A stretch of DNA of 64,000 bases from Planctomycetota bacterium (GTDB lineage: Bacteria > Planctomycetota > UBA8108 > UBA1146 > JAJFFE01): positions 617 to 64,616 of the forward strand of contig JAJFFE010000316.1 of assembly GCA_021776775.1 (NCBI GenBank). The letters are read 5' to 3'. The notes under the pieces are model-generated. The model searched no databases. It had not been told where the DNA came from and was given only the letters and a program-made list of their open reading frames with translations. Of the stretch, positions 649-31,052 are shown piece after piece (positions within the stretch are counted from its first letter, which is position 1; each line of letters opens with the position of its first letter). Made by a program: the position numbers and the translations under genes.

Positions 649-2508
649 TCACGGGCAGTTGTCGAACTCGTCGCATGGTAATCGATCGGGGTTGGGCTCG
701 ACGCCGCAGGCGGCGAATGGCGCGGAGGGATCAGCGCCGCCATCGAACAGGCCGGTGAGCGCGAAAATCGGATCTCCGATATCGAGTCCGCCGTCAGCGT
801 TGATGTCCGCGGCGGCCGCGCATGGTGGTTCCGCCCCGGATTCGAAAAGGTGAGAGAGTAGGTAGATCGTGTCTGCGATGTCGTAGAGGCCGTCGTTGTT
901 CGCGTCGCCGCGCCGGAAGGGGACTTGGCTCGCAGCGACGGGTGCCACCGGGTTCAGCTCAACGTTGCCGTCGATCTCGGCCGGGTCGAGTGCCACTCCC
1001 GCGGAAATGAAGATGTTGGTGACGAGAGGTGTTCCGAGCGTCTCGGTCCAGGTAAGCGCAGCGTCGACGCTGTCGGAGAACCCGATCAGTTCGGCGGCGT
1101 TGGTCTGGTAAGCGACGGATACCAAACTCGCGGGGGCGTCGATCGTGATGGTCTCCGCGCCGAGGAAGCTGTAGACGGTGCCGAGCGTGACGCCGTCGGC
1201 GAACAGCGTCGCTTCGAAGTAGTCTGGACCGACCCCGCCGGCAAGTGCGGCGAGCGCGTTGACCGCAACGACGTTGGTCGCCTGAAGCGCGGTCTCCGGG
1301 TGCGCGAGTCCGAAGGAGAATCCTTGGGTGATCGTCGCGCCGGAGGCGTCGGAGAACAGGAGGTCGACCGAGAAGTTCGCGGCACCGGTGGCCGGGTCGA
1401 CGTCGATCGAGTGGTTTCCGGCGTCCATCACGAGGTCGCTACTCGTGGGTGGGTCAATCGGGCCACCACCACCCCCGGAGCCGCTATGCGGCGGCACGCC
1501 GGGCGGATTCGAGTCTTGGCTGTTGATGGTGATGAGTCCGTTGACCAACTCCGGCACGATCGGCTCGAGATCTTCCACCAACAACGTGTCGGTTTCCGGT
1601 ATGCCGACCGTGTCGCAGAACGCAATCTCGACGGCGGATCCGACCGGACCGACCAGGGAATACTCGACATCGAGAATTTCGAGGTCGTCTCCGACGGGAA
1701 GCACCACGCCGGCGAGGAAGCTGACCAAACAAAGGTTGAGCACGCCGTCGGAGTACGCCTCGGCGATCCAGAAGTCTGGATTGAGCGCCACGGTGTCGGC
1801 ACCCATGTTGGCCGAGATCGGATACAGGTCGTTTTCGTCGCTACAAATCGACATCGACCAGCCTCGAACCAACGACCCGCCATTATCGAACAGGACGGTG
1901 ACGTCGGCGCGTTCGTCGGCGGCGAACGTCGGAAGTTCGAAGCTGTAGTCACCGCTCCCCGTCGGCGGTGGGTCAATCGGTGGGTGCGGGTTGGGGTCAG
2001 TCGCGACGATCGTGATCGAGCCTGCGGTCGTCGTGGGTGTGATGGACACCATCTCGACGACCACCCACGGCAGTACGACCGGGGTGCCGAGCGTGCAAAT
2101 GGTCAACGGGCTGACTTCACCGGGAGCTCCGAGCATCGAGTACTCGATGTCGAGAACCTCCAAGCCGAAACCGACCGGGAAGACCTCGACGCTCATGAAG
2201 TCGACGATCATGCCGTACGTGACTCCGCCGCCTTCGAGATCGATCACGACAAAGTCCGGGTTCACCGCGACGACGTCGCTTCCCGGTTCCGCGGTTACGG
2301 GAAGCACCAGGGATGGCGTGCTGCACACGCCCATGGAGAATCCCCCTACGTTGCCACCCAGATTATCGAACTGTATGGTCGCGACGACTCGTTCGTCGCC
2401 GTCGACGTTCGGTGCGTTGAACGTGTAGTCACTGCTCTGGCAAAAGACAGTATCTGCGACAAAGAGCGTGCACAGAAGCACCGCTATCGCACGGGTTGTT
2501 CTCAGCAT
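649..2508 (-). CDS. Secreted protein with three ~170-aa cohesin-like tandem repeats and a C-terminal Cys-rich dockerin-like module
   Basis: N-terminal signal peptide MLRTTRAIAVLLCTLFVADTVFC. Three internal repeats start DYTFNAPNVDGDERVV.., DYSFELPTFAADERADV.. and DLVMDAGNHSIDVDPATG... Each carries AVNPDF / ALNPDF motifs reminiscent of the cohesin VYPD core. The protein ends RRGDANNDGLYDIADTIYLL...CAAAADINADGGLDIGDPIFAL...CDEFDNCP. Confidence 0.8.
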   Translation of the reverse strand: MLRTTRAIAVLLCTLFVADTVFCQSSDYTFNAPNVDGDERVVATIQFDNLGGNVGGFSMGVCSTPSLVLPVTAEPGSDVVAVNPDFVVIDLEGGGVTYGMIVDFMSVEVFPVGFGLEVLDIEYSMLGAPGEVSPLTICTLGTPVVLPWVVVEMVSITPTTTAGSITIVATDPNPHPPIDPPPTGSGDYSFELPTFAADERADVTVLFDNGGSLVRGWSMSICSDENDLYPISANMGADTVALNPDFWIAEAYSDGVLNLCLVSFLAGVVLPVGDDLEILDVEYSLVGPVGSAVEIAFCDTVGIPETDTLLVEDLEPIVPELVNGLITINSQDSNPPGVPPHSGSGGGGGPIDPPTSSDLVMDAGNHSIDVDPATGAANFSVDLLFSDASGATITQGFSFGLAHPETALQATNVVAVNALAALAGGVGPDYFEATLFADGVTLGTVYSFLGAETITIDAPASLVSVAYQTNAAELIGFSDSVDAALTWTETLGTPLVTNIFISAGVALDPAEIDGNVELNPVAPVAASQVPFRRGDANNDGLYDIADTIYLLSHLFESGAEPPCAAAADINADGGLDIGDPIFALTGLFDGGADPSAPFAACGVEPNPDRLPCDEFDNCP

Positions 2509-2521
2509 TCGGTGCTCCTTT

Positions 2522-2884
2522 CTACGGGCAAGCTACATAGGAATCGCAGGAGGTGAGGTCGGCGGTCGGATCGTCACCGCAGCTACTCGGCGGCGGAATC
2601 GGCGGAGATCCGGCGGTGAACAGGTCGGCCAGGAGCACGATGGGGTCGGCGATGTTGACTTCGCCATCGTCATTGATATCGGCGGCGTCGAGGCAGGGGA
2701 GGTCTGACTGACCCGATAGGAAGACCAAGCACTCTATGACGTCTGCGATGTTGATCGCGCCATCGCCTCCGATGTCACCCCGGACGAAGTCGTCCGCTAG
2801 CGCTTGATTCGGAGCGATCGAGACGACGACCGCCAGAGCAAGAGTCGCAAGCGCGCCCCCTAGGCTCTTGGAGAATTTCGACAT
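2522..2884 (-). CDS. Small secreted protein consisting only of signal peptide plus Cys-rich dockerin-like module
   Basis: Internal start MSKFSKSLGGALATLALAVVVSIAPNQALA (signal peptide) is preceded by GAGAGGAAACTCG-ATG. The remainder is VRGDIGGDGAINIADVIECL...CLDAADINDDGEVNIADPIVLL...CDSYVACP. The ORF track runs further upstream to 3034, but that N-terminal extension lacks a signal peptide. Confidence 0.7.
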   Translation of the reverse strand: MSKFSKSLGGALATLALAVVVSIAPNQALADDFVRGDIGGDGAINIADVIECLVFLSGQSDLPCLDAADINDDGEVNIADPIVLLADLFTAGSPPIPPPSSCGDDPTADLTSCDSYVACP

Positions 2885-3000
2885 CGAGTTTCCTCTCACG
2901 AGCAAAATTTTCGTTCTGCGTCCCTGCAGAGCGTTCACACAGATGATCCCGTGCTCCGCCTCCCGGTGACGAAGAAGTGGAGATAGATTTACGTTTCGCA

Positions 3001-4401
3001 TCATGGCGCGCACGACGTTGCCGGGTAGTAGCAATAGGGGAGAGTGTCGTCGGTCGAGTCAGCCGTGCACGGGCCGAAGGGGCTGCCCGTCGAGAAGAGT
3101 CCGTCCAAGATTTGAATGACGTCTCCGATCCCCATCGTGCCGTCGTCGTCGAAGTCGGCGGCGTCTTGACAGGTGGGAGTAGCGTCGTCGCCGAAGAGTG
3201 CCCCGAGTAGCAGAATCGGATCGGCGAGGTCAATCACGCCGTCGCCCGTGGCATCTCCGCGCCGGAAGTTGGTGATCGACGGAGTCGAGGCGTTGACGAA
3301 CACTTGCAGACTATTGGCGACCGAGTTCGCGACCACGACATCCAGGGCTCCGTCGCTGTTGACGTCGATCGATGTGAGAGAGACGCAGTTCGATTCGGTC
3401 GAAAAGACGACGGCGGCATCGAACCCACCAGAAAGGTCCCCTTCGTTGAACGACAACTCGTCACTGCCCGCGTTGACTGCCGCGACATCGATAGCGCCGT
3501 TCAAAGTGAAATCCGCGAGCAGGGTCGCTCGGGGTTGTTGACCCGCGGTCAGCGATACCGATGGAGCGAACCCTCCACCGGGCGTGGCGAGCATGAACGT
3601 AATGATGTCTTGGTTCGGGCAGGGAATGACCAGGTCCAAGAGGCCGTCTTGATTCAGGTCGTGCGTCGAGATGAACCAGATTGAATCGTCGATGCCGAGG
3701 TTGAACGGAACGATGGTCGGGAAGCCGCCGGTGCCGTCGCCGTGAAGCAAGCCGAAGGTGCTGTCCGTCGAGTTGCTGACCACGAGGTCGAGGTGGCTAT
3801 CGCCAGTGAACTCTCCGGACACCACGAACACCGGCGTCGTCAGGAACGCCAAGCCGAGGCTCGCCGAAAACGTGCCGTCCCCGTTTCCGTAGAACACTCG
3901 GAGCAAGTCGTCGCCGTGCGCCGTCACCGCGAGGTCGACCGAGCCGTCTTCGTTCAGGTCAGCGGTTGCCAAAGACGTTGGCGCGTTCCCGCATGGTATC
4001 GGTGTCTGTGGGATGAACGTCCCGTCGCCAACCCCGAGCAGCACCGTGAAGGACGCGTCGAAGATGTTGGCTGCGATCAGGTCGAGTACGGCGTCGTTGT
4101 TGACATCGTCGACGACCAAGAAGAACGGCGAGCCCGTGGCATACTCGACCATCGGCCCGAATCCACCGGTCCCGTCTCCCAGCGTGATCACTACGGAGGA
4201 GCCGAGGGTGCTCGCGATGGCAAGGTCCACGTGGCCGTCTCCGTCGAAGTCTCCCGAGACGACGCTTTGCGGAGTCTCCACACTTAGTGCTGCCGATTCC
4301 GCGAACTCGACGTCTCCGTGGCTCACGCCCGTCAAGCTTGCGAGTAACAGCGCCACGACCAGCACACGGCGACAGCTGTCGCGTATGGCTTTCGTTCTCA
4401 T
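3001..4401 (-). CDS. Secreted FG-GAP/VCBS-repeat beta-propeller protein with C-terminal Cys-rich dockerin-like module
   Basis: Signal peptide present. Repeated FG-GAP signatures: GDFDGDGHVDL, ADLNEDGSVDLAV, GEFTGDSHLDLVV, HDLNQDGLLDLV, IDVNSDGALDVVV. C-terminus RRGDATGDGVIDLADPILLL...CQDAADFDDDGTMGIGDVIQIL...CYYPATSCAP. The start overlaps the upstream gene stop by 4 nt (ATGA). Confidence 0.85.
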   Translation of the reverse strand: MRTKAIRDSCRRVLVVALLLASLTGVSHGDVEFAESAALSVETPQSVVSGDFDGDGHVDLAIASTLGSSVVITLGDGTGGFGPMVEYATGSPFFLVVDDVNNDAVLDLIAANIFDASFTVLLGVGDGTFIPQTPIPCGNAPTSLATADLNEDGSVDLAVTAHGDDLLRVFYGNGDGTFSASLGLAFLTTPVFVVSGEFTGDSHLDLVVSNSTDSTFGLLHGDGTGGFPTIVPFNLGIDDSIWFISTHDLNQDGLLDLVIPCPNQDIITFMLATPGGGFAPSVSLTAGQQPRATLLADFTLNGAIDVAAVNAGSDELSFNEGDLSGGFDAAVVFSTESNCVSLTSIDVNSDGALDVVVANSVANSLQVFVNASTPSITNFRRGDATGDGVIDLADPILLLGALFGDDATPTCQDAADFDDDGTMGIGDVIQILDGLFSTGSPFGPCTADSTDDTLPYCYYPATSCAP

Positions 4402-7289
4402 CGTTTCTCCTCCTCGTTCCCCGTTGTTGTCAGATTCAAAGAACGGTCGTCATAGTTGACCTGCAGGGTTGCGATAACACTGAGTTGGTTGGCCGGAGCG
4501 ACACTGACTTGTGCCCGTTCGCCACGCGGCCCGTCTCGCAGCGATACGGAGTAGTTGCCCGTTCCGAGGAAGTCGAATGTGACCTCTCCTTGGTCATCCG
4601 TTCGACCCAGATACACCGCGTCTGCGATATCCCACACTTCGGGGGTGATCCAGAGGTCGCGATGACCCAACGGCACTCCCGTCGTGTTGCTGATCCGGAG
4701 GGTGCGAGCGACGCGGGGTTCGAGCACGATTGGAATCGTGTCCGAGGCCGTCCACACGTAGAACGCGGCGGCATACTCTCGTGTGTAGACCATTCCGCGC
4801 GCGCCGAGGATCGCGGATCCGTCGTGAATCTTGCGCGGCCATCCGTCGAGGCCACCGAAGACAATGACCTCTTCGGTCGTCGGGTAGTCGCGGGGCAGCA
4901 GCACCAAGTTGCTGAGCGTGCGAATCGGTTGTCCGGTCGTGGATCGGAAATCCAACCGTCCGATGCGGTGAGTCGACGTGCGATCGACCACGAGGTCGAG
5001 GGTGTCGCCGACTTTGGCTCGGCACGTGTTTCTGGAGCCGAGGAACCCGAACCGGGGAACGTCGGCGTTGTTTGAGCGGATGAGATCGAACGGTCGCTCG
5101 ACCGCGAGCAGCAGTCCATGCGTGGCGCGCGTGCTTTCGTCACCGCGACTGGAAGTCTCGGCCAGGGCGCCCCAGCGTAGATCGTTGCGAGTCGCACGGA
5201 CCGGGGGGAGTTGACCGAACCCACCGAGTTCGAACCGCCCCTCGGCGTCGGTCGTGATGGACGGCCCCCAAAGTTCATCACCGAGAATGGACCCGATTTG
5301 CAGCGCCACGTCGGCGACCGGGGCGCCCGATCGATCGCGGACCGTGCCTCGGATGAACTCGCCGGCTCGCATTTCAACATCCGCGCGACGCGTTTCGTGG
5401 GCGACGAGATCCGAGATCGCGAACTCATCGCAGCGGTACTCGGCGTGCCAACCGGTGAGGAGGTAGTCGCCTTCCGCCACGCCCGTGAAGCGGTAGAGAC
5501 CGTCGTTATCGCTGGTCGCTTCGGGGAGGTCTCGCGCGAAGAACGTCCCCGTCTGTGGAATCAGGCGCATGCGAAGTCCCGCGAGCGCGGCGCCGTCCGG
5601 CGAAGTCGCGCGCCCTTCGACCACCGCGCCGTCGTCGAGCACGATGAGCGTTTGGTCCGTTGCCTTCAGCGCGCTCTGTGTCGTCGGGTGGTGGGGGTGG
5701 CGTACCGTGACTGCTACCGGCTCGTTTTCGGTGACGGCCAACAGGGTAACGATCCCTTCTTCGTCGCTGTGCGTCGTGAGGGGTGTTCCACGCCACTGCT
5801 TCGTTCGCATTTCGACGACGGCGCCGACCACCGGGACGCCGCGTTCGTCGACCACCGTGCAGTCCCAGGACTCTCCGCGTCGTAGTCGAACCGTGGACGA
5901 CGGTGCTCTTGCGACATCGCTTGCGGCCGCGCACCCATCCGTCTGAATGGAGTAGAAGACGGCGTTCGACTCCCACGAGAATTGCACCCGGCCGTCACGA
6001 TCTGAAACGAGAGTCTCGTACGTTCCCGACGCCGACGGTCCAACCGTGACGGGGACGCGAGCGAGTGGCCGGTCTTGCTCGTCGAGCACTTCGATCGAGC
6101 ACGTCATCGCTGGGTCGAGAACGATCACATACGGAGACGCGTCGGTCGTCCGCGATCGGCACGGCTCGCGATACTCTTGGAATCCCGTCGCTCTCACCGC
6201 AAGTCGCGCCGATGCAAACTCGGTCACGTCGACGGCGATGTATCCGTCCTCGTCGGTGACGCCGACGACTGCCGAAGCGAACGGCTGAGACAGAATGGAA
6301 GGAGCGTCGCGACCTCCGGAGGTGAGCGCGGAGACCATTCGCAGTTGTCCCGTCGAGACCGTGGCTCCGCGAATCGGCGTGCCCCCGATCGCGTTGAGCA
6401 CGCGGACTTGCTGTGTGCTTGCGGACGGCACCAGGGAGTTTGTCGCGACACCTTGTTCGGTCAGGTCGCGGGTAGACCTCGAGGCGTGATCACTGCCGCG
6501 AGTCGCGGTCGCACCCAAACCGTTGCCGGTAGACGTCGGCTGATTCGCAGCCGTCGGGTCCATCACGGTCGGTGAACCGCCGGGCGTGCCGTCCCAGAAA
6601 AGCCACACCAGAACGGCCAACGTCAACAGCGTGAGCGCGATCACTTTGCCTCGGCTGCGCATGGCTCGGTGATCCGTCGCGCGCGCCGTCGATGAACTTC
6701 CAGAGTCCCACGGAGCCGACTCGCGAAGCTGGTCGAGTAGTACCGGTTCTATCCCCGGCCCGACGCCGCCGAGCAGAATCAAGAACGCGAGTCGACGATC
6801 TCCATCTTCGCTCGTGAACTTCTCGCGCAATAGCGCGAGGCCACGCTTGATCTGCACCCGAACCGTGTTCGTCGCAACGCCGCGAATCTCGCCGATCTCC
6901 GCGGCGGTGTGCCCCCCGTAGAAGTGGAGCGTCACGACGCTTCGATACGGCTCGCGCAGGCTTAGTACATCTTGCGTCAGCGTCTTGCGCAGTTCGCGCG
7001 CTTCACACGGATCGTCGCCAGGGTCGATGGCTTCCGGGCGCGCGGTCGCTTGTTCGCGGTTTCGGCGACGCCCGCTCTCCCGAAACGATCGTCGCGCAAA
7101 GTTGCGCAGTACCGTGGACAGCCACGATGTCAGTTTTTCGCGCTGTTCGGGGGGCTTGCCGAGGGCGGCGACGTAGGTCATCTGCACAATGTCGTCGGCG
7201 GCACTCTCGTCGCGAACCAAGCTGCGGGCCAGTTTCTGCAGCCAGTCGGAGTGAGAGATCAGCTCTTGTTCGAGCATGTCCGGTGGCAT
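4398..7289 (-). CDS. ECF sigma factor fused to a transmembrane helix and a large extracytoplasmic CarboxypepD_reg-like repeat domain
   Basis: N-terminal ~180 aa has sigma-70 region 2 (DDIVQMTYVAAL) and region 4 HTH (LREPYRSVVTLHFYGGHTAAEIGEIRGVATNTVRVQIKRGLALLREKF). The frame then continues with no stop into MRSRGKVIALTLLTLAVLVWLFW (TM helix) and ~750 aa holding at least 5 Ig-like units of CarboxypepD_reg type (e.g. IRGTVRDRSGAPVADVALQIGS...TTDAEGRFEL). Confidence 0.8.
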   Translation of the reverse strand: MPPDMLEQELISHSDWLQKLARSLVRDESAADDIVQMTYVAALGKPPEQREKLTSWLSTVLRNFARRSFRESGRRRNREQATARPEAIDPGDDPCEARELRKTLTQDVLSLREPYRSVVTLHFYGGHTAAEIGEIRGVATNTVRVQIKRGLALLREKFTSEDGDRRLAFLILLGGVGPGIEPVLLDQLRESAPWDSGSSSTARATDHRAMRSRGKVIALTLLTLAVLVWLFWDGTPGGSPTVMDPTAANQPTSTGNGLGATATRGSDHASRSTRDLTEQGVATNSLVPSASTQQVRVLNAIGGTPIRGATVSTGQLRMVSALTSGGRDAPSILSQPFASAVVGVTDEDGYIAVDVTEFASARLAVRATGFQEYREPCRSRTTDASPYVIVLDPAMTCSIEVLDEQDRPLARVPVTVGPSASGTYETLVSDRDGRVQFSWESNAVFYSIQTDGCAAASDVARAPSSTVRLRRGESWDCTVVDERGVPVVGAVVEMRTKQWRGTPLTTHSDEEGIVTLLAVTENEPVAVTVRHPHHPTTQSALKATDQTLIVLDDGAVVEGRATSPDGAALAGLRMRLIPQTGTFFARDLPEATSDNDGLYRFTGVAEGDYLLTGWHAEYRCDEFAISDLVAHETRRADVEMRAGEFIRGTVRDRSGAPVADVALQIGSILGDELWGPSITTDAEGRFELGGFGQLPPVRATRNDLRWGALAETSSRGDESTRATHGLLLAVERPFDLIRSNNADVPRFGFLGSRNTCRAKVGDTLDLVVDRTSTHRIGRLDFRSTTGQPIRTLSNLVLLPRDYPTTEEVIVFGGLDGWPRKIHDGSAILGARGMVYTREYAAAFYVWTASDTIPIVLEPRVARTLRISNTTGVPLGHRDLWITPEVWDIADAVYLGRTDDQGEVTFDFLGTGNYSVSLRDGPRGERAQVSVAPANQLSVIATLQVNYDDRSLNLTTTGNEEEKR

Positions 7290-9388: not shown

Positions 9389-11884
9389 CTAGGATCCGGT
9401 CCCGAGTTTGGGAGTCGGCCGCTCGGGCGGGGGTTCGCCGTACAAGATCGCCTCGTACGTGGCCACTTCGAATGGCTTCTCGAGCCGCTTGAACAGCGTG
9501 ATGAGATGCTCGAGCGTGCTTTGAGATCGGGGGTGGTGGGGCCCGATTTCACGGAGCTGAATGCTCCACGCGTGGAGCAGCGCTTGTTTGGCTCCGTCCA
9601 GATCGCCCGCACCTATGAGACATGCGCCCTGCAGCGAATAGGATGCTGCCGCAGAGACTGAGTCCTTGCCGTGTAGTGTTTCGATGAGCTCGGTCGATTC
9701 TTGGTAGTACGTCGCCGCTTCGGCGTGCTCGCCGCGATAGACCAAGCAGTCGGCGAGGCCGCGAATCGGCATGATCATGTTCACCGTCGGGCGATCGAAG
9801 TCGAGGCGCGCGCGTTGGTCGCGAAACAGCGCCTCCGCGCGAGCGATCTCGCCACTTCGCATGAGCGCGTGCGCGTAACCGCTCTCGGCTCGCATGCGCA
9901 ACGGGTGGCTATCGCGATACTCTTTCTTCAATGATTCGATCGCTGAAACGTAGAGCTGCTCCGACTCGTCACTGTCGTTCGTGAACGGTGCGAAGTCGAG
10001 CATTGCAATGATGACGCGCCGTTCGGAGGGATCGCCGCTTCGAATGATCTTGTAGGTGACCTCGCGGAGTTGTTGGATCCCATCCAGACTCTTCTTCGGA
10101 TCGATCGAATAGGCGAGCAGTCTGGCGAGGGACCGCTCTGTGGACAATCGGCGCGGGTGTAGTTCAGGAAGAATGCGTTCACCAATAGCACGGCTTCGGC
10201 GCAGGATCTCCTTGGCGCGGTCGTAGTCGTGTTCTCCGCTGTATATGTCGGCGAGCGCGTTCAGCATGTCGACCGTATCGGTGTGCTCTTCTCCGTTCAG
10301 GTCGATGGTGTCGGCCAAGCACTCCTCGGCGAATGGGATCGCCTTGCCGGGCATGCCGTTGTGATTGAGGGCGCGGGCGATGGCAGAGAGGAGGTCGAGA
10401 CGGAGTTGCTTGCGGTGCGCGAATTCGACGCGTACCTGCTCGCCCATCGATACCAGCAGGTCGACGAGTTTGACGTCGGGACCTTCGAGGTCAGGAGAGG
10501 GCGCGGTGAACACCCTCATCAAGAACTGGTTTATCTCGTTGGCTCGCGTCGCCTCGTTCTGGGCTTGAATCGCCGCAAGCTCTGCTTTGCCTTTTTCTCG
10601 AAGGGCGAGCACGGTTCCGATCGACAGCGCGATGATCGCGACCGCCATTGCGCCGAGGATGGCGCGGTGGCGTTTGGTGTACTTGGTCAGTAGATAGATC
10701 GTGCTTGCGGGTCGTGCCGAGATCGGTTCGTTGTGGCGGTAGCGGCGAAGATCGGCCGAGAACTCCGAGACCGTCTGGTACCGGCGATCCCGTTCCTTGG
10801 CCAGAGCCTTGGCGACAATGGTCGCCAAGTCGCCGCGGTACGCTCGATCGACAGAATGCAGCGACAGGGCGTCTACTTCCTTGATGATGCTGATCGCTTC
10901 GTGAAGCGTCTTGCCCTTCACGTCGTTGGGCAGGCTCCCCGCGAGCAGCTCGAACAGCACGACGCCGAGGGAATAGACGTCCGATCGTGTGTCGAGAAGA
11001 TCCGGATCCCCGCTTGCCTGCTCTGGGCTCATGTACTGAACCGTACCGAGGATTTGACCGGCGTAGGTATGCGGGGCGGCTTCGTCGTCACTGTCGGACG
11101 AGAAGACGCGCGCGACGCCGAAGTCGAGCACCTTTACCCGGCCGGACTCGTCGACCAAGATGTTGGCCGGCTTCAGGTCTCGGTGGATGACTCCCTTTTG
11201 GTGGGCGTGTTGAACCGCTTCGCAGATTTGCTGGAAGAGTTCGAGTTTAGCGTCGGTATCGAGACTGTGGATCGTAACGAACTTCGTAATGGAGACGCCT
11301 TGCACGAACTCCATGGCGAAGAACGGGATGCGCTGGCCGTTCCCGGTAGCGGTCCCCGCCTCGAAAACACGGGCAATGTTCGGGTGCTCGAGCAGTCCGA
11401 GCACTTGGGATTCGTGCTCGAAGCGACGCTCGGCGCTCTGCGACGGAAACGCGCTGCGCATCACTTTCAGCGCGACCGTGCGCTTGGGGCTGTCCTGCTC
11501 GGCGCGATAGACCACGCCCATTCCGCCTTCGCCGATCGGTTCGATCAAGCGGTAGTGACCGACCCGCTGTCCCGGTTCGAGTTCGTTCTCTTGGAGCAGT
11601 GCGTGGATGGCGATCGGGTCGGGATCGAGCAGAGGTGTTTCGGACGCGTCACATTCCAGGAGCGCGTGCAGCTCGGCGCGAACGGTCGAGTCTTCCAGCG
11701 CTTCGAGGAACTGCTCCCGAGCTTCACCGACCAACTCCACGGCACGATCGAAGAGCGACTCGAGTTCGCGATCGCTGGGTAAGGTCGGTTTTCGTGACAC
11801 AGTTCGTTCCCCCCAGCCCGGATTCACCGCCGTTGAATGGTCGCCCGATCGCTCAATGATACGGGTGGCGACGACGACTTCCAC
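9389..11884 (-). CDS. Serine/threonine protein kinase with transmembrane segment and C-terminal TPR-like domain
   Basis: Hanks kinase motifs GHYRLIEPIGEGGMGVVYRA, VALKV, HRDLKPANILV, DFGVA, GTVQYMSPE. TM ILGAMAVAIIALSIGTVLAL. The long C-terminal helical repeat region is TPR-like. An alternative GTG start at 11800 has a GGGGGGAA SD. Confidence 0.9.
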   Translation of the reverse strand: MEVVVATRIIERSGDHSTAVNPGWGERTVSRKPTLPSDRELESLFDRAVELVGEAREQFLEALEDSTVRAELHALLECDASETPLLDPDPIAIHALLQENELEPGQRVGHYRLIEPIGEGGMGVVYRAEQDSPKRTVALKVMRSAFPSQSAERRFEHESQVLGLLEHPNIARVFEAGTATGNGQRIPFFAMEFVQGVSITKFVTIHSLDTDAKLELFQQICEAVQHAHQKGVIHRDLKPANILVDESGRVKVLDFGVARVFSSDSDDEAAPHTYAGQILGTVQYMSPEQASGDPDLLDTRSDVYSLGVVLFELLAGSLPNDVKGKTLHEAISIIKEVDALSLHSVDRAYRGDLATIVAKALAKERDRRYQTVSEFSADLRRYRHNEPISARPASTIYLLTKYTKRHRAILGAMAVAIIALSIGTVLALREKGKAELAAIQAQNEATRANEINQFLMRVFTAPSPDLEGPDVKLVDLLVSMGEQVRVEFAHRKQLRLDLLSAIARALNHNGMPGKAIPFAEECLADTIDLNGEEHTDTVDMLNALADIYSGEHDYDRAKEILRRSRAIGERILPELHPRRLSTERSLARLLAYSIDPKKSLDGIQQLREVTYKIIRSGDPSERRVIIAMLDFAPFTNDSDESEQLYVSAIESLKKEYRDSHPLRMRAESGYAHALMRSGEIARAEALFRDQRARLDFDRPTVNMIMPIRGLADCLVYRGEHAEAATYYQESTELIETLHGKDSVSAAASYSLQGACLIGAGDLDGAKQALLHAWSIQLREIGPHHPRSQSTLEHLITLFKRLEKPFEVATYEAILYGEPPPERPTPKLGTGS

Positions 11885-11983: not shown

Positions 11984-12823
11984 TCAGCGACTCAGGCTCG
12001 GAAGCATCCAGGTGGGCGAGTGTTCGTGATGAGTCACTCCCGCGACTCCGGTGCTGACAAGGGCAGAGTCGATCCCGGCCGCGTTGGCGCCCGCGATGTC
12101 GGTACCGAGCTGATCACCGATCATGATGACGTTGCGCGTACCGACACGCGACAGAGCGGACTCGAAGATTGGCGCTCCCGGTTTGCCGAGGTGCGTGAAA
12201 CGCCACTCGGCTTTGGGATAGCGTGTCTCGAGCGCCGCTTCCAAGAGCAGCGCGATTCCACCCGCCGTGAACCCGAACGAGCCTTCGGCTCGCGGATAGA
12301 TGACGTCTGGGTTCGGGAGCAGCAGGTGCACCGTGTCGCCGCGATCGAGCCTTCGGTATAGCGCGCTCAACGTGTCATCGAGGCTGTCGATGAACGAGTA
12401 GCCCTTCGCGCCGCACGGGATCACCACGTCGAACTCGGCTTGCGGTGACGGGGCGACGATCGTGGCGCCGAGTGACTCGACGAACGAAACCGCGCTCGGG
12501 CCGCCGAGCACCAGTGCACGGGGATTCGTCAAGCCGTGGTCGCTAAAGTGCTCGCCGATCAACGATCCCGAGCTGATGACGCGTTCGACAGGGATGGGAA
12601 TGCCGTACCCGGCGTATCGTTCTGAGCACTCTTGCGGAGAACGTGACGCGTCGTTGGTCAGGATGTAGTACGGCCGATCGTACGACTCCAAATGCTCGAT
12701 GAGAGCGTCGGCTCCCGGGATGGGGCCGTCGTCGTGGACTAGTACGCCGTATGCGTCGAAGAAGATCGCTTCGTAGCGATCGAGGATCTCACTCATCGAA
12801 ATGGTCGGAGTGTCGTGCGTCAT
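11984..12823 (-). CDS. HAD-superfamily hydrolase, subfamily IIA (NagD/sugar-phosphate phosphatase-like)
   Basis: N-terminal FFDAYGVL (DxDG-type motif I), ILTNDAS (motif II) and C-terminal IGDQLGTDIAGANAAG (motif IV). Confidence 0.8.
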   Translation of the reverse strand: MTHDTPTISMSEILDRYEAIFFDAYGVLVHDDGPIPGADALIEHLESYDRPYYILTNDASRSPQECSERYAGYGIPIPVERVISSGSLIGEHFSDHGLTNPRALVLGGPSAVSFVESLGATIVAPSPQAEFDVVIPCGAKGYSFIDSLDDTLSALYRRLDRGDTVHLLLPNPDVIYPRAEGSFGFTAGGIALLLEAALETRYPKAEWRFTHLGKPGAPIFESALSRVGTRNVIMIGDQLGTDIAGANAAGIDSALVSTGVAGVTHHEHSPTWMLPSLSR

Positions 12824-13923
12824 AGTTCACTTTCGATGAGTTTGGCCAACAGCGCCGCGCTTCGCGGCCAGCGGTAACGGTCGATTCGATCCTGGCGCCG
12901 CAGATCCAACGCTGCGCGTTGATCTTCGTCGGTCAACAGCGTCTCCAGCCCGCGCGCGATCGACGCGGGTTGTAGTGGATCGCAGTACAGAACGCTATCG
13001 CCCAACACCTCGGGCAGGCTCGACCCGTCTGAAACCAGGCAGACCGTTCCGCACGCCAACGCTTCCAACGGCGGGAGCCCGAACCCTTCGTAGAGCGAAG
13101 GGTAGAGGAACGCGCGCGCCGACGTGTACAGCGCGGCTAGTGTCTCGTCATCGACGTCTTGCAGTTCGACGATGTCTTCTGAGCCGCGAACGCCGTCATG
13201 AGCGAAGATCGCTCCGCCGCCTCCGACGACGACGAGCTTGTGTCGCGACCGGAGGTCGTGACCGAGCAGTCGCCACGCTTGCACGCTACCGGCCACGTTC
13301 TTCCGAGGATTGCCGCCCCCCATTGTCAGCACGTACTCGCCGAGTTCGGTGACGGCCGGGGTGGGGGCACGCGGACTCCAGAACGGATCGACTCCGCACG
13401 GCACGACCGAGACGGTCTCTCGGTCGGCGATGCCGAATCGGTCGAGTTCTTCTCGGCTGAACTCGCTGTCCGTGATGACTCGACGGACGCGCCGCGCGAG
13501 GCGCGGCCACGTCAGGCGGGTGTAAGTCCGAAACGGCCACGAGAACCAGTCGTTGCTCGCGAACGGTGAAGCGTCGTGCAGGGTTAACAGTTGGTTGGCG
13601 AGGACCAGCGGTCCCATGTTGCACGGCGACCAGAGTAGATCGATCGAGTGCCGGCGACAGAGGACCGGCAGTTTCATCTGTACCCAAGCCGGCAGCGGCA
13701 GCGAGGAGTTGTCGCGCACGACGTGGTCGGCGATCGACTCCGACGGCGCCACGCCCGGGGCGAGGATCACCGTTTCGAAGGAGCGATCATCGAGGTCGGT
13801 CAAGGCGCGAGTCAGTTCGCGGGCGTAGCGCTGCACTCCGGTTTGTCGCTGCGCGAGGAAGCTACCGTTGATCCCGAGGCGGCGCGCTCGGCGAGCCTTT
13901 GGCTGTGTCACGAACGAACCCAT
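12820..13923 (-). CDS. Glycosyltransferase family 4 (GT-B, group 1)
   Basis: C-terminal EGFGLPPLEALACGTVCLVSDGSSLPEV motif. 4-nt overlap with the HAD gene. Confidence 0.85.
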   Translation of the reverse strand: MGSFVTQPKARRARRLGINGSFLAQRQTGVQRYARELTRALTDLDDRSFETVILAPGVAPSESIADHVVRDNSSLPLPAWVQMKLPVLCRRHSIDLLWSPCNMGPLVLANQLLTLHDASPFASNDWFSWPFRTYTRLTWPRLARRVRRVITDSEFSREELDRFGIADRETVSVVPCGVDPFWSPRAPTPAVTELGEYVLTMGGGNPRKNVAGSVQAWRLLGHDLRSRHKLVVVGGGGAIFAHDGVRGSEDIVELQDVDDETLAALYTSARAFLYPSLYEGFGLPPLEALACGTVCLVSDGSSLPEVLGDSVLYCDPLQPASIARGLETLLTDEDQRAALDLRRQDRIDRYRWPRSAALLAKLIESEL

Positions 13924-15638
13924 CCGAGTTCCTCGGCGGGGTAGCAGAACGAGGTACCGGTCAGTATTCCGTCGCAGACGACGTCGAGTCCCCGGCTCGA
14001 TCCCGGCTCGAGTTCGGCGAGTGATCCCACCGCCGGTCGGTAAGGCGGGTCGCCCGCGGTCGCTTCCATGAACTCGATCGGAATCATCCGGCGGAAGAAG
14101 ATGTGGTACGCGTAGCGCCGTGCCCGTTCGAGCCGCTCCTCGTCGAGCGGGTCGAGCGGAAGCTGCGTCAGAAGTTCGGCGTACTCTTCACGGCTGGCGG
14201 CGTCGTACGTAAACCCTTTGCCTCGAACCCACGCTTCGCCGGCGACGATGACCGGTTTGCCGGTGGCCGCCAACTCGACACCGGTCTTGGTTCCGTAGAT
14301 GAGCGCGGCGTTGCATTGATCGAGTAGCGCGTAGGTGCTGACTTCGCTCTCCGGCGGAACAATGCTCACGTTCGCGGGCAGGACTGGGAATGCGCGTTCG
14401 ACTTCGTCGACCACTCGTTGTCGTGACGGCAGCGTGCCACGGATCTCGGCGGGGTGGACGCGAATGACCAGGTGCAAGTCGGGGCGTGACGCGAAGTGAT
14501 CAATCGTTTCGAGGACCCAGTGCATCATGGACTCGAACGCGTTGGCCGCGTAGTGCAGCTGCGCATCCCAGATGACGTTTGTGAGCAGACCGATCACCGG
14601 TTTGTCGAGCGGGATCTTCGCTTCGCGGGTGATCGACTCGAGCGCTTCGCGCGGGCGATTGTGAAACCAGATCCAATCCTCGGTGCCCCGGCGTCGGCTG
14701 TCGAGGTAGGTGAGCAGCGCGTCACGTTCTTCGTCGCCGAACGGGATCGACTCCCACTCCGACGTCGGCTCGTCGAGGAGCGTGTGGTGATACGTATCGT
14801 CGTGGCTGAAGATGAAGCACTGCTTGCGATAGGCCGGCGTCCAATTCACGACGCGCAACCCGACGGCTCGGGCGACCGCTCCGATGATTCCCTGCGGCAC
14901 GTAGATCCCGTGGTGGAACGCGGTCGCCGTGTAGTCGTGTTCGGCGAAGAGTCGGCGGCTCACGGTGGCGGTGGTGAGCGCCGCGCGAAAGTAGCGTCGC
15001 AGGACCGCGTCGCCGGTCGGCTCCGATTCCAGATCTCCGCGGGCGAAGAACCGTAACGCGCCAGCGAGTGCGTGCTCTCCGGTGGGAACGCCGTCGAGTT
15101 GGTGGGCGCGGATTTGTTCCACTGTGAGGTCTCGAGCGAGCGCGGTGTGCTGGCCGAGTTCTTCCGGCGTGATCCAATCGCTGTAACGGTGGACGCGGAA
15201 TCCGAGTTCTTCGAAGTAGCGTTGGCCGGGTTTGAAGCAGCCGCCGCAAAGGTCGGCTTGCGGCCCGTGCTGGGCGAACGACGCCGGGTCGGCATGGGCT
15301 CTTACTTCGCACCGTTGGCACGCGTCGAGGATTCCGTCGCAAAGGAGCACGTCGACGTCCGCGCCGCGCAGCGTGAGCGCCATCCCGAGCACGCTTTCGA
15401 GCGTCGTCCCCGCCCAGTATCCACCGAGGCTGGTGGCGAGGAGTATGCGAGGACTGGGCGGGTTGGATGGTCCGGGAGCGCGCTGCGCGCACGATTGCCA
15501 CTTATCCCAATCGGGGCCGAGCAGCGCCGACCACCGGGGGTAGGCCGAGGTCCGGCCGCGGTACCAGCGAACCAGCCGGCGCAGTGTGCGAAACCGTCGT
15601 AACGTCTCGCGCACGTTCACGCTCCGTTCGGGGGGCAA
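13908..15638 (-). CDS. GT-B fold glycosyltransferase-like protein, possibly KpsS/KpsC (Capsule_synth) family ulosonic-acid transferase
   Basis: 576 aa. Rossmann-like halves: RILLATSLGGYWAGTTLESVLGMALTLRGADVDVLL and KPVIGLLTNVIWDAQLHY...HLVIRVHP...ALIYGTKTGVELAATGKPVIVAG. The family call is tentative. Confidence 0.55.
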   Translation of the reverse strand: MPPERSVNVRETLRRFRTLRRLVRWYRGRTSAYPRWSALLGPDWDKWQSCAQRAPGPSNPPSPRILLATSLGGYWAGTTLESVLGMALTLRGADVDVLLCDGILDACQRCEVRAHADPASFAQHGPQADLCGGCFKPGQRYFEELGFRVHRYSDWITPEELGQHTALARDLTVEQIRAHQLDGVPTGEHALAGALRFFARGDLESEPTGDAVLRRYFRAALTTATVSRRLFAEHDYTATAFHHGIYVPQGIIGAVARAVGLRVVNWTPAYRKQCFIFSHDDTYHHTLLDEPTSEWESIPFGDEERDALLTYLDSRRRGTEDWIWFHNRPREALESITREAKIPLDKPVIGLLTNVIWDAQLHYAANAFESMMHWVLETIDHFASRPDLHLVIRVHPAEIRGTLPSRQRVVDEVERAFPVLPANVSIVPPESEVSTYALLDQCNAALIYGTKTGVELAATGKPVIVAGEAWVRGKGFTYDAASREEYAELLTQLPLDPLDEERLERARRYAYHIFFRRMIPIEFMEATAGDPPYRPAVGSLAELEPGSSRGLDVVCDGILTGTSFCYPAEELGWVRS

Positions 15639-28276: not shown

Positions 28277-30910
28277 TCATAGTTCGATCACCCGCGAAAG
28301 GTTCGGCGCGCCCCCGGTTCTCGCGCGCAGGTCTTCGATGACTTTCCACCGTTCAGTTCCAGGTTCGCCAACTCCGACGGAATAGACTCCCGCGTCGTAC
28401 ACGCCGACGTCGAACTCGGGGTACTGTTCTCGGATCGTGTAGATGATCTTCCCTTCGGCGTTCTTGATCTGAACGACAGGGTTCTCCATTCCGCGGACCA
28501 CGAAGCGCGTCAACCAGTGCGTCGGTTTGGGACCGTTGTCGCGCTGCTGGATGGTGATGGGCCAACCGTCGTACGGCTTGGCGTCGTCGCCGGTGACGTC
28601 GACCCAGCGGGGCCAATTGGTGAACGTGACCGCGCGTTTGCTCTTGTCGAACTCTGCAATTCCGAAACCTGGGGCTCGGTCGTTGATGGCGTGCGGAGGC
28701 TTCGGGGCAATGTGCGGGTTCGATACCGCGTGAACAGTCATGCGATTGCCGAATCCGTCGAGGTAGTCACCGCTGTAACGCGGGGAGCCTTCCGCGCGAT
28801 TGCCGCCCGGTTGCGACGGAAACCAGCGACGCGGCCACACGTTGGCGACCGACGGGACGCAGAGGGCGAAGCCTGCGTCGCGAAAGCTGTCGACGCCGTA
28901 TTGAATGGTGCTACCGAGGTGCTGATCGCCAGCGATGTGCACGGCGAACCCGCGACGCATGCGATCGACGGCGGCGTTGCGTTTACTCTGCGGCCAGCTA
29001 TTCGAATCGAAGTCGGTCACCGGGACTTCATGGTCTGGATAGCCGCCGAGCGGCCACACCTTGAGTCGCGGGGTGACAGCGTCGTTGTCCGCCGGCGGGG
29101 GGAGCGTCGCGACGTTGGCAAAGATCGTCTGTGAGCAGACGCACTTCATCTCAGCGCCGCCCGACCAGTCATTGGCCCACGACTCCAAGAAGTCGAGCTG
29201 CCGTTGCCCGAGGAGGACCGCTTCCTTGGCGTCCGCCTTGGCGCGGATTTCCGCTTGGGTCATGTCGAACTCAGGGTTCTTGATCCAACCGTTCACGATC
29301 CTCGCCTCGGGAAGCACGACTGAGGGCGCCGACTTCCACTTGCGATCTTCGAGCACCGCGAAGCTGATTCCGCCGTACAGCACGTCACAGTAGTAGACGC
29401 CGATGCCTTGAGCGACCGGGGTCGGGTCAGGGGAGTCGGGCATGTGGCTGGTCTGAGTCCGTTGAACGACGTTGACCCAGGTGGCCGGCATGCGGTATCC
29501 ACCGTTGTCGGTCGCGTACCCTTCGGCGATACGCTTCTCGATACTGATACCACCGGCGCCCCAAATGTTTCCGTGGTAGACGTCGTGGTCATCGGTCATA
29601 GCCAGGCTTGGCGTGTTGCGAAGGAGCTCGCCGTATTCCCAGCCGTAGATCATCCACTTTCGCAAGTAGTCGAGCGTGGCCGTCGCGAGTGGCTTGCGCT
29701 GGATTCCGTACTCTCCGACACGTTCGTACAGTTGGTCCCCGGTGAACACGAGCATGTCGGGCCGAAAGTGCTGAACGTTACGAACAATGTCGGCGTGCGG
29801 GAAGCCGAGATCGTTGTTCCCGGTGAACGCGGCGACGACGATCTTCGCTTGGTCCTTGGGGTCGGGTCGTATCGTGCCTTCGTATGTGAACGTTTTCGGA
29901 CTCTTGCGACCGGCACTCAGTTCGAAGCGAACGCGATAGCGGGTTGGCTTCGTTCGCGCGTAGCCTTCGACGCGGAACGTTGCCGTGCACGCAAGCGGGT
30001 CTCGCTGGGCGGTTGCGACCGGCGACCACGACTCTCCGTCGAAGAGGTCGAGGTGCGCCACCACACCGTCGGCGCCGACCGGCGGCAGTTGTGCCGTGAG
30101 CTTGAGCGAGCCTCGACTCAGGGTGTGTTGGGTGAAGAAGATCGGCCCGAACGTTCGCTCGGCGTGCTCCAAGATGCCGAGCCCGCTGACACGGAAGTCG
30201 CGAAACCAGAATCGCATAGCCCCGCCGCGTTTCGTACGCGGCTTGCCGCCCCATTGCGGATCGACGACGTTGCCCAGGGCGATCGGCGTCTCTACCAGTT
30301 TCGCCGATGAGCAGACCAGGGCTATGCCGCCGTCGAGCGCGCCGCCATCGAGGTCGCGACGGTCGACCGTGACCGGTGCGCCATCTTCGTTCTGCGCGAT
30401 CAACGTCAGTAGGCAGCGGTCGCCTTCGATCGGCATGGCGGTGAGCTTCAAGCTAAACGGAGAGCTCGTGTCGATGCGCAGAGGGTTTTCCGAAGGGGCG
30501 TCACTCGGAGGCTTTCCGAGGAAGGCTACGCCAGTCGGAGTGACGCCGCAGTTGAGCCCGAACCCTCGCACTGCGCTGTCGCGATAGTCGTCGAAGTATC
30601 CACGGACGCCGATGCGAAAGCCGACCCAGCCGAGCGGCTTCTCCTTCGCGTCGAGCGGACCGCAGTCCACCGACAATTCGAACCCGGCCGCACTGTTCTC
30701 GATCGAATGCGTGAGCAGGTAGACGTTGCGGTCTCCTCCCGCCACGTGGCATTCGATTCGTCCGCCGTTCAACTGCCAGTCTTGGAGGGGGTTCGCCCAG
30801 AACTCGGGGCCGATCCAAGGACGTTGCGTCTCGGGGAGCTCGCTTTGATAGTCGTCGGCCACGGCGGGGGTGGCCGCGAGGACGGCGAGCATGATCCAAG
30901 TCGATCTCAT
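28277..30910 (-). CDS. Secreted PhoD-like metallophosphatase (alkaline phosphatase D family)
   Basis: Signal peptide MRSTWIMLAVLAATPAVADD. Calcineurin-like motifs VVAAFTGNNDLG, MLVFTGDQLYE, MTDDHDVYHGNIWG, AVHIAGDQH. The ORF track starts upstream at 30976. Confidence 0.85.
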   Translation of the reverse strand: MRSTWIMLAVLAATPAVADDYQSELPETQRPWIGPEFWANPLQDWQLNGGRIECHVAGGDRNVYLLTHSIENSAAGFELSVDCGPLDAKEKPLGWVGFRIGVRGYFDDYRDSAVRGFGLNCGVTPTGVAFLGKPPSDAPSENPLRIDTSSPFSLKLTAMPIEGDRCLLTLIAQNEDGAPVTVDRRDLDGGALDGGIALVCSSAKLVETPIALGNVVDPQWGGKPRTKRGGAMRFWFRDFRVSGLGILEHAERTFGPIFFTQHTLSRGSLKLTAQLPPVGADGVVAHLDLFDGESWSPVATAQRDPLACTATFRVEGYARTKPTRYRVRFELSAGRKSPKTFTYEGTIRPDPKDQAKIVVAAFTGNNDLGFPHADIVRNVQHFRPDMLVFTGDQLYERVGEYGIQRKPLATATLDYLRKWMIYGWEYGELLRNTPSLAMTDDHDVYHGNIWGAGGISIEKRIAEGYATDNGGYRMPATWVNVVQRTQTSHMPDSPDPTPVAQGIGVYYCDVLYGGISFAVLEDRKWKSAPSVVLPEARIVNGWIKNPEFDMTQAEIRAKADAKEAVLLGQRQLDFLESWANDWSGGAEMKCVCSQTIFANVATLPPPADNDAVTPRLKVWPLGGYPDHEVPVTDFDSNSWPQSKRNAAVDRMRRGFAVHIAGDQHLGSTIQYGVDSFRDAGFALCVPSVANVWPRRWFPSQPGGNRAEGSPRYSGDYLDGFGNRMTVHAVSNPHIAPKPPHAINDRAPGFGIAEFDKSKRAVTFTNWPRWVDVTGDDAKPYDGWPITIQQRDNGPKPTHWLTRFVVRGMENPVVQIKNAEGKIIYTIREQYPEFDVGVYDAGVYSVGVGEPGTERWKVIEDLRARTGGAPNLSRVIEL

Positions 30911-31052
30911 GCGAAGTCCTGATTCATCTCGTGAATGGGTGTCAAGAGTAGGCACAGTTTGACCGAGTTCGCGCATCCGCGACAGGGATCATCACGGAGG
31001 TCGGGCTGCTCTCGCTCTGGCTTACATCGCGTGGGTCGGCTATACGTCAGGC

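Follow-up and report, generated by a model that had tools for sequence, protein, structure and literature searches.

Four genes with a common C-terminal module

We analysed a 64-kb window of contig JAJFFE010000316.1, from a bacterium of the Planctomycetota, in which four open reading frames (ORFs) terminate in a common module of 88-89 amino acids (aa) that runs from an F[RVI]RGD motif to the stop codon. Coordinates are window positions throughout, all four genes lie on the minus strand, and the six-frame translation of the window was searched with hidden Markov models (HMMs). The first gene (649-2508) encodes a scaffoldin-like protein of 619 aa, in which the ORF, HMMs and a fold model delineate a signal peptide, three predicted cohesins and the module, a cysteine-bearing dockerin (652-918; aa 531-619; cysteines at aa 563, 601, 612 and 618). 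The second (2522-2884) encodes a dockerin-only secreted protein of 120 aa, counted from an ATG before a typical signal peptide (...ALA/DD), with the module at 2525-2788 (cysteines at aa 64, 102, 113 and 119). The third (3001-4401) encodes an FG-GAP beta-propeller protein of 466 aa (FG-GAP_3 at 2e-32), with the module at 3004-3267 (cysteines at aa 411, 445, 457 and 464). The fourth (31740-36992) encodes a giant protein of ~15 immunoglobulin (Ig)-like domains and ~1750 aa, its true start being uncertain, with matches to Ig_3 and I-set and the module at 31743-32006 (cysteines at aa 1695, 1733, 1744 and 1749, plus an extra pair). In this order the stop codons directly follow CP, CP, CAP and CP.

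A first-pass annotation, made from the letters of this DNA, had noticed that four secreted proteins share a C-terminal module of ~88 aa and that three of the genes are contiguous. Both observations held, at near-identical coordinates: the first three genes are separated by gaps of only 13 and 116 nt, and all four proteins have N-termini that, judged by eye, resemble signal peptides. Compared one by one with the first module, the others share 38-47% identity, an alignment of the four has 23 invariant columns, and an HMM built from them scores its own members at E = 1e-38 to 6e-44. The same HMM found no fifth copy in the six-frame translation, where its next best match had E = 0.13; the four-way likeness is far beyond chance. 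The carriers had been called unrelated, and they are indeed different proteins, but the one with three repeats holds three cohesins, the presumed binding partner of the module. With cohesins on the 619-aa protein, the shared tail becomes part of a probable cohesin-dockerin assembly locus. As for the four positionally conserved cysteines, they are present in every module, although the Ig module has six cysteines and the 120-aa protein five.

The dockerin, its cysteine-bearing extension and the cohesins

Read directly, the window modules consist of two duplicated segments, each a DxNxDGxxxxxD calcium loop with oxygen ligands at positions 1, 3, 5, 9 and 12, followed by a helix. Across 635 homologous instances, loop positions 1, 3, 5 and 12 are D, N/D, D and D in 80-99% of cases; the ligand columns of the first loop were conserved at 0.97 (D11), 0.96 (N/D13), 0.90 (D15) and 0.99 (D22), and those of the second at 0.98 (D44), 0.95 (N/D46), 0.80 (D48) and 0.99 (D55). 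Scores against Pfam Dockerin_1 (PF00404; gathering threshold 22.9 bits) fell on both sides of the cutoff: when isolated, the modules of the Ig and dockerin-only proteins reached 25.8 and 23.6 bits, and the other two 15.0 and 14.6 bits, the last being that of the scaffoldin. When whole proteins were scanned, none of the four reached the threshold (22.7, 20.0, 13.1 and no match). Just 2 of the 23 closest homologues (P0002-P0024, with the window's own 120-aa protein, P0001, left out) carry a precomputed PF00404 match, and an NCBIfam scan yielded weak matches only, to the dockerin end of CelK.

An AlphaFold2 model of the module of the 120-aa protein, built from an alignment of 26 homologues, has the dockerin fold, with a mean predicted local distance difference test score (pLDDT) of 81 and values above 90 for residues 10-60. 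When this model was compared with the PDB by Foldseek, ranks 1-33 were all dockerins (target TM-score 0.42-0.87), and the first 28 single-dockerin chains in that list had target TM-scores of at least 0.73 and root-mean-square deviations mostly of 1.2-2 A. Although the Dockerin_1 scores are borderline, on the strength of the PDB matches of the model and the canonical EF-hand ligand positions the core of the module is, by sequence and predicted fold, a type-I-like dockerin, as the first-pass annotation had surmised in describing it as a dockerin-type, double EF-hand-like module.

The Pfam model stops at the second helix. Beyond it the modules continue for ~30 residues, LFxxGxxPxxPFxxC(2)GxDPTxDxLxC(3)xxxxxC(4)(P), as a proline-rich linker and a cysteine-bearing tail of ~25 residues. 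A further cysteine, C1, is nearly invariant in the linker between the two segments, three residues ahead of the second calcium loop. We tabulated cysteines in ~620 non-redundant modules (279 C-terminal, 339 internal) from 79 genome loci and 150 cluster representatives. Two forms were frequent: C1 with three tail cysteines (141 C-terminal and 52 internal modules; the commonest spacing is C2-11-C3-6-C4), and C1 with one tail cysteine (103 and 141), in which C1 and C3, the cysteine after DPTxDxL, are the two retained. Modules without any cysteine numbered 2 C-terminal and 59 internal. Most modules had an even total (248 of the 279 C-terminal and 272 of the 339 internal ones), odd totals being rare (31 and 67, respectively), and C2 occurred together with C4 in 159 cases and without it in one.

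Because cysteines are gained and lost in pairs, these counts support the presence of disulfides. The dockerin model assigns a beta-bridge state to both C1 (residue 36) and C3 (residue 85), and strand or bridge to residues 5-6 and 74-75 as well. Covariation and model together suggest two disulfides, C1-C3 and C2-C4, which would fasten the tail to the linker between the segments and to the N-terminal strand. The first-pass description of a disulfide-locked variant thus finds support in pairwise co-occurrence that falls short of proof. Another pair, made up of the second position of loop 1 and the residue just ahead of loop 2, behaves in the same manner (66 instances with both, 29 with a single one, 540 with neither, among the 635), which points to a likely third disulfide joining the two calcium loops in a subset of modules. 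The Ig-protein module, with six cysteines, has this extra pair at aa 1668 and 1699 (31989-31991 and 31896-31898, minus strand; RGDC... and ...ACD).

A fixed C-terminal CP tail had also been proposed, a claim that did not survive the wider sample. Among the 279 C-terminal modules, CP is merely the commonest ending (73), alongside C (26), CR (12), CE (7), CL and many others; in ~140 the last cysteine is the final or the penultimate residue. Nor is the module purely C-terminal: in our sample, which is biased, C-terminal modules make up about half of the instances, the others being N-terminal or internal. With tail and cysteines complete, it is also found directly behind a signal peptide or in the interior of a protein, and hundreds of residues then follow (L044, L011, L028, L006). 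N-terminal examples include a sulfatase+YHYH protein (L044:124-2481) and proteins of ~1,450 aa at L011 (5812-10176), L028 and L054; the latter proteins end in a cohesin (architecture D...C, where D is dockerin and C cohesin; minus-strand ORFs at L028 and L054).

The rest of the 619-aa protein consists of three repeats of ~150 aa each, on the minus strand like the gene: 1999-2436 (aa 25-170), 1504-1953 (aa 186-335) and 919-1425 (aa 362-530), which we call cohesins 1 to 3. Neither Pfam nor NCBIfam gave a match when the whole protein was scanned. An HMM of the repeat found homologues in many loci that had been fetched through the dockerin only, and a family was gathered from these loci and from a search of cluster representatives; against its HMM, cohesin 1 has an independent E-value of 4e-40. 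Compared with PDB sequences, a profile of 17 such domains had cohesin chains as its two best matches, and with a profile of 32 family members all 33 matches at E<=1 were cohesins, the best being 3l8q_A (1.1e-6) and 1g1k_A (1.9e-6, over 6-134 of 152 positions). Two of 17 family members match Pfam Cohesin at E<=1, and one homologue (P0033) is above its cutoff (27.7 versus 24.1 bits). An AlphaFold2 model of repeat 2 is all-beta, with pLDDT 94.7, and its top 50 Foldseek matches in the PDB were all cohesins (E down to 4.5e-8; query TM-score 0.53-0.80, target TM-score up to 0.84); identity to the matched cohesins is just 10-19%. From profiles and predicted fold we conclude that the three repeats are divergent cohesins and the protein is scaffoldin-like.

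The cohesin-family HMM found no cohesins elsewhere in the window. Cohesins 1 and 2 share a cysteine pair (GVCS and TIC-TLG in cohesin 1; family columns 39 and 119), which is complete in 44 family members, reduced to a single cysteine in 2 and absent from 167. Cohesin 3, without either cysteine, is the most divergent repeat, with longer loops and an identity to cohesin 1 that varies from 20 to 27% with the alignment used. In a word-indexed protein search the three window repeats returned no match, even though the 619-aa protein is itself a cluster representative there, and a wider repeat profile returned one protein. Nulls from word-indexed searches should not be taken as absence for low-complexity domains or divergent beta-sandwiches.

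Linkage, distribution and genomic context

A genome scan with the dockerin module gave at least 420 confirmed copies. Among the 79 best loci, 66 carry a Planctomycetota label, often with several loci per genome. An exhaustive search of 1.84 billion cluster representatives (50% identity) recovered 1,057 proteins at E<=1e-30; relaxing the cutoff raised the number to 27,663 at E<=1e-10 and to 56,870 at E<=1e-3, and this last figure surely takes in ordinary dockerins. Judged by these matches and labels, the dockerin-variant family is very large and mostly of Planctomycetota. Some module-bearing contigs are labelled as metagenome-assembled genomes of Nanoarchaeota, Bacillota or Acidobacteriota (L031, JAUSIK010000008.1; L033/L043/L078, QNYK01; L044; L055), and these labels may reflect mis-binning, mislabelling or real occurrence outside the phylum.

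Although the 79 loci were fetched by the dockerin alone, 39 of them contain cohesins, and every one of their 60 cohesin ORFs carries a dockerin. The architectures comprise D (109 ORFs), CD (29), CCD (14), DCD (11), CCCD (3), DC (3) and DD (2). Since this sample had been chosen by the dockerin, we drew a second from metagenomes with a degenerate DNA pattern for the cohesin motif GWSFGxCHD, which is independent of the dockerin. True cohesins were present in 30 of 46 pattern matches; the 16 without a cohesin, which include human-gut contigs, are probably chance hits. Among the cohesin ORFs of the cohesin-motif loci, 49 have an intact 3' end, and 46 of these terminate in a dockerin. Tandem arrays of two to five consecutive genes of the form signal peptide-Coh(1-3)-Doc were found at L081, L084, L093, L096, L107 and L118, whereas the window has just one Coh-Doc gene. 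Because nearly all cohesin ORFs in both samples carry a dockerin, the CCCD protein of the window is, by its architecture, a typical subunit of the family.

The cargo attached to the module in relatives comprises sulfatase+YHYH, alpha-2-macroglobulin, LamG, LTD+CotH+beta-helix, FG-GAP and PKD/BACON proteins, as well as one with a weak GH2-like match. As predicted from these domain assignments, cargo is diverse, extracellular and mostly non-cellulolytic.

Upstream of the FG-GAP gene lies an ORF for a 963-aa protein (4398-7289, minus strand) with regions 2 and 4 of an extracytoplasmic function (ECF) sigma factor, a transmembrane segment at ~aa 214-235 and, beyond it, an extracytoplasmic region of ~730 aa with matches to CarboxypepD_reg, Big_1 and MG4. 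This combination resembles a sigma factor joined to a transmembrane sensor of its own. The end of the 963-aa ORF, stop codon included, and the beginning of the FG-GAP gene share 4 nt, so that the two genes probably belong to one operon, and the protein may regulate the dockerin operon. Its membership in the system is tentative: beside related loci the association with an ECF sigma gene is not conserved, with only one weak match. Other genes in the window encode an OsmC-like protein (21-533), a Ser/Thr kinase with TPR repeats (9389-11884, minus strand), a HAD hydrolase, a GT4 glycosyltransferase and a capsule-synthesis-like protein (11984-15638, minus strand), and, immediately downstream of the giant Ig gene, a PhoD-like phosphatase of 899 aa (28277-30976, minus strand).

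A putative extracellular assembly system

Our preferred reading, which we consider likely, is a cohesin-dockerin assembly system of non-cellulosomal type, encoded at this locus of a Planctomycetota-type bacterium. Once exported by the Sec pathway, the dockerins would fold around two calcium ions and be locked by disulfides, C1 in the inter-segment linker pairing with C3, and C2 with C4, the penultimate residue; such a covalent clasp would suit the oxidising extracellular milieu. The dockerins would then plug, in a calcium-dependent manner, into the three cohesins of the 619-aa protein, and in this way the FG-GAP propeller and the Ig-repeat protein, both probable binding or adhesion modules, would be recruited into a surface or extracellular complex that might serve adhesion or substrate capture. 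The bare dockerin of 120 aa could act as a competitor or cap. In this family the cohesin proteins themselves bear a dockerin, and its subtype is the same; assembly into chains or branching networks therefore seems more plausible than assembly around a single anchored hub.

Several observations weigh against this account. Two of the four window dockerins score below the Dockerin_1 cutoff even when isolated, and none of the three window repeats matches Pfam Cohesin (PF00963, threshold 24.1 bits), even in isolation and at E<=10. The tail of the dockerin model reaches a pLDDT of only 62-67, and the cysteine co-occurrence counts ignore kinship among the sequences. The 120-aa protein has a fifth, odd cysteine at aa 52 (2729-2731, minus strand), in helix 1, and a glycine at calcium-ligand position 3 of loop 1, the sole deviation among the four window modules; its first calcium site may be degenerate, or the cysteine may form an intermolecular bond. 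On the scaffoldin no anchoring module is visible, be it SLH, sortase signal, lipobox or transmembrane segment. Finally, all four window dockerins are of one subtype, from which neither a rule for cohesin-dockerin pairing nor a barrier to self-binding can be read.

The same data bear on three other explanations. The module might have the dockerin fold without being a cohesin binder, serving instead as an autonomous calcium-binding module that stabilises its protein or binds a ligand (e.g., a glycan or the cell envelope), with the cohesin-like repeats unrelated to it. Such a role is suspected for many orphan non-cellulosomal dockerins, and it would fit the 109 of 171 module ORFs that have no cohesin in the same protein, the 40 of 79 loci that have none nearby, and the window itself, where four dockerins stand against three cohesins that are all on one protein. 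The reverse coupling, however, is near-obligate (the module is on all 60 cohesin ORFs of the first sample and on 46 of 49 in the second), the genes are adjacent in the window, and both folds match partners that have been crystallised as complexes; we therefore regard this explanation as improbable.

The remaining two explanations concern the cysteine-rich tail. It could be a sorting or attachment signal for export, processing or covalent anchoring, comparable to PEP-CTERM, LPXTG or the C-terminal domains (CTDs) of the type IX secretion system (T9SS), rather than a structural clasp. That it closes all four window proteins, and that the last cysteine lies zero or one residue from the end in about half of the C-terminal modules (~140 of 279), would be expected of such a signal. 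The occurrence of complete modules after a signal peptide or internally argues against this role, the residue after the last cysteine is variable, and the cysteines come and go pairwise. The tails of the four window modules lack a hydrophobic or basic segment and match no NCBIfam sorting-signal model. With a position that is not obligate and neither a hydrophobic helix nor a basic tail, we rejected a sorting signal of the PEP-CTERM, LPXTG or T9SS CTD kind as very unlikely. Four conserved cysteines at short spacings also recall small metal-binding knuckles, and they could hold zinc or iron in place of forming two disulfides. The abundant two-cysteine form (C1 and C3; 103 C-terminal and 141 internal modules) cannot give a tetrahedral site, though, and the third dockerin pair and the cohesin pair behave alike, in proteins that are secreted. 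A metal knuckle was rejected on these grounds, and we give it a very low probability.

The proposed cohesin-dockerin system can be set against those already described. Like the type I dockerins of clostridial cellulosomes (PF00404; PDB 1OHZ, 2CCL, 2VN5, 4UYP chain B), the window module has two tandem calcium-loop and helix segments of ~22 residues with near-perfect internal two-fold symmetry, aligns with target TM-scores of 0.73-0.87, and usually sits at the C-terminus of secreted proteins. Unlike them, it adds ~30 residues, a nearly invariant cysteine between the segments and two or three covarying cysteine pairs, and it has [ILM][AG] at helix positions 10-11 where Clostridium thermocellum dockerins have Ser-Thr. 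Its hosts are Planctomycetota with mostly non-cellulolytic cargo, in contrast to the anaerobic Firmicutes of the clostridial dockerins. The cohesins resemble type I cohesins (PF00963; PDB 1G1K, 2VN5 chain A, 5NRM chain A) in their predicted nine-stranded beta-sandwich of ~145 aa and in their tandem arrangement on a scaffoldin-like protein; they differ in that Pfam Cohesin misses the window copies and in the covarying cysteine pair of a subset. The window scaffoldin has no carbohydrate-binding module (CBM), SLH or X-module, and its family nearly always has a dockerin of the cargo subtype. In C. thermocellum, scaffoldin and enzymes are kept separate by distinct type I and type II pairings, whereas in the window family cohesin proteins and cargo bear dockerins of one subtype. 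Nor is the locus a cellulosome sensu stricto, given that the window cargo is an FG-GAP protein, an Ig-repeat protein and a bare dockerin, and that no CBM or SLH is detectable by Pfam on the scaffoldin.

The clasps of Ruminococcus flavefaciens ScaA and of PDB 8X39, the first dockerin of Clostridium thermocellum Clo1313_0689, are non-covalent packing contacts; that of the window module would instead consist of covalent disulfides and a dedicated conserved tail. What is common to them is that terminal segments fold back and stabilise the dockerin, a clasp concept already described (for ScaA, PMC3821032), and 8X39 was itself among the Foldseek matches of our dockerin model. Dockerins of anaerobic fungi (Neocallimastigomycota) and thrombospondin type-3 (TSP3) repeats are likewise small disulfide-stabilised extracellular interaction or calcium modules, a disulfide-dependent calcium-binding structure having been reported for TSP3. 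The fungal fold is unrelated and without EF-hand loops. TSP3 repeats, unlike the window module, have neither helices nor the dockerin fold, and a precomputed TSP_3 match was present on one homologue only (P0010), upstream of the module.

Few known protein-protein interactions are as strong as that of cohesin with dockerin, which is a workhorse of synthetic biology; to our knowledge such pairs have been studied almost only in anaerobic cellulolytic Firmicutes. Peer et al. (2009) reportedly surveyed non-cellulosomal cohesin and dockerin modules. For Planctomycetes, Andrei et al. (2019, ISME J, PMC6461901) already put forward a hypothetical 'planctosome', in which such modules would form a non-cellulosomal extracellular complex, from a few Nemodlikiaceae proteins (an LTD anchor, peptidases and an HYR adaptor) found with standard domain models. 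Its cargo there is peptidases, whereas that of the window is an FG-GAP propeller and an Ig-repeat protein, and the cysteine extension, the Coh(1-3)-Doc arrays and the phylum-wide abundance found here do not appear in the dockerin and cohesin passages of that paper. A literature search found no description, and NCBIfam no model, of the cysteine-bearing extension or the Coh-Doc arrays; the kind of system is already known, and the dockerin with this extension is a little-described variant that is common in Planctomycetota. A Pfam-based census of 2024 listed a single species of the Planctomycetes-Verrucomicrobia-Chlamydiae (PVC) group as scaffoldin-containing (PMC11557425), which is consistent with divergent cohesins being missed.

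A broader reading, which we put forward tentatively and think rather unlikely as a whole, is that of a phylum-wide, largely unannotated, disulfide-stapled cohesin-dockerin system in which every socket protein is also a plug, and whose subunits would polymerise into branched extracellular networks that could be a main organiser of the planctomycete surface. Its basic subunit would be SP-(cohesin)1-3-dockerin (SP, signal peptide), encoded in tandem arrays, decorated or capped by propellers, Ig adhesins, sulfatases and macroglobulins, with bare dockerins as chain terminators. If true, this would be a supramolecular architecture of a new sort, unlike the hub-and-spoke plan of the cellulosome.

Without binding, the locus would hold another set of orphan dockerin-like calcium modules. 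If the proposed cohesin-dockerin system is real, a very large family mostly missed by standard domain models would be a natural source of dockerins and cohesins whose covalent bonds fit them for oxidising conditions, useful as parts for designer assemblies. It would follow a polymer-like assembly logic, since nearly every cohesin protein bears a dockerin, and it would give a concrete basis to the 'planctosome' idea and to the way in which planctomycetes organise enzymes and adhesins at their surface.

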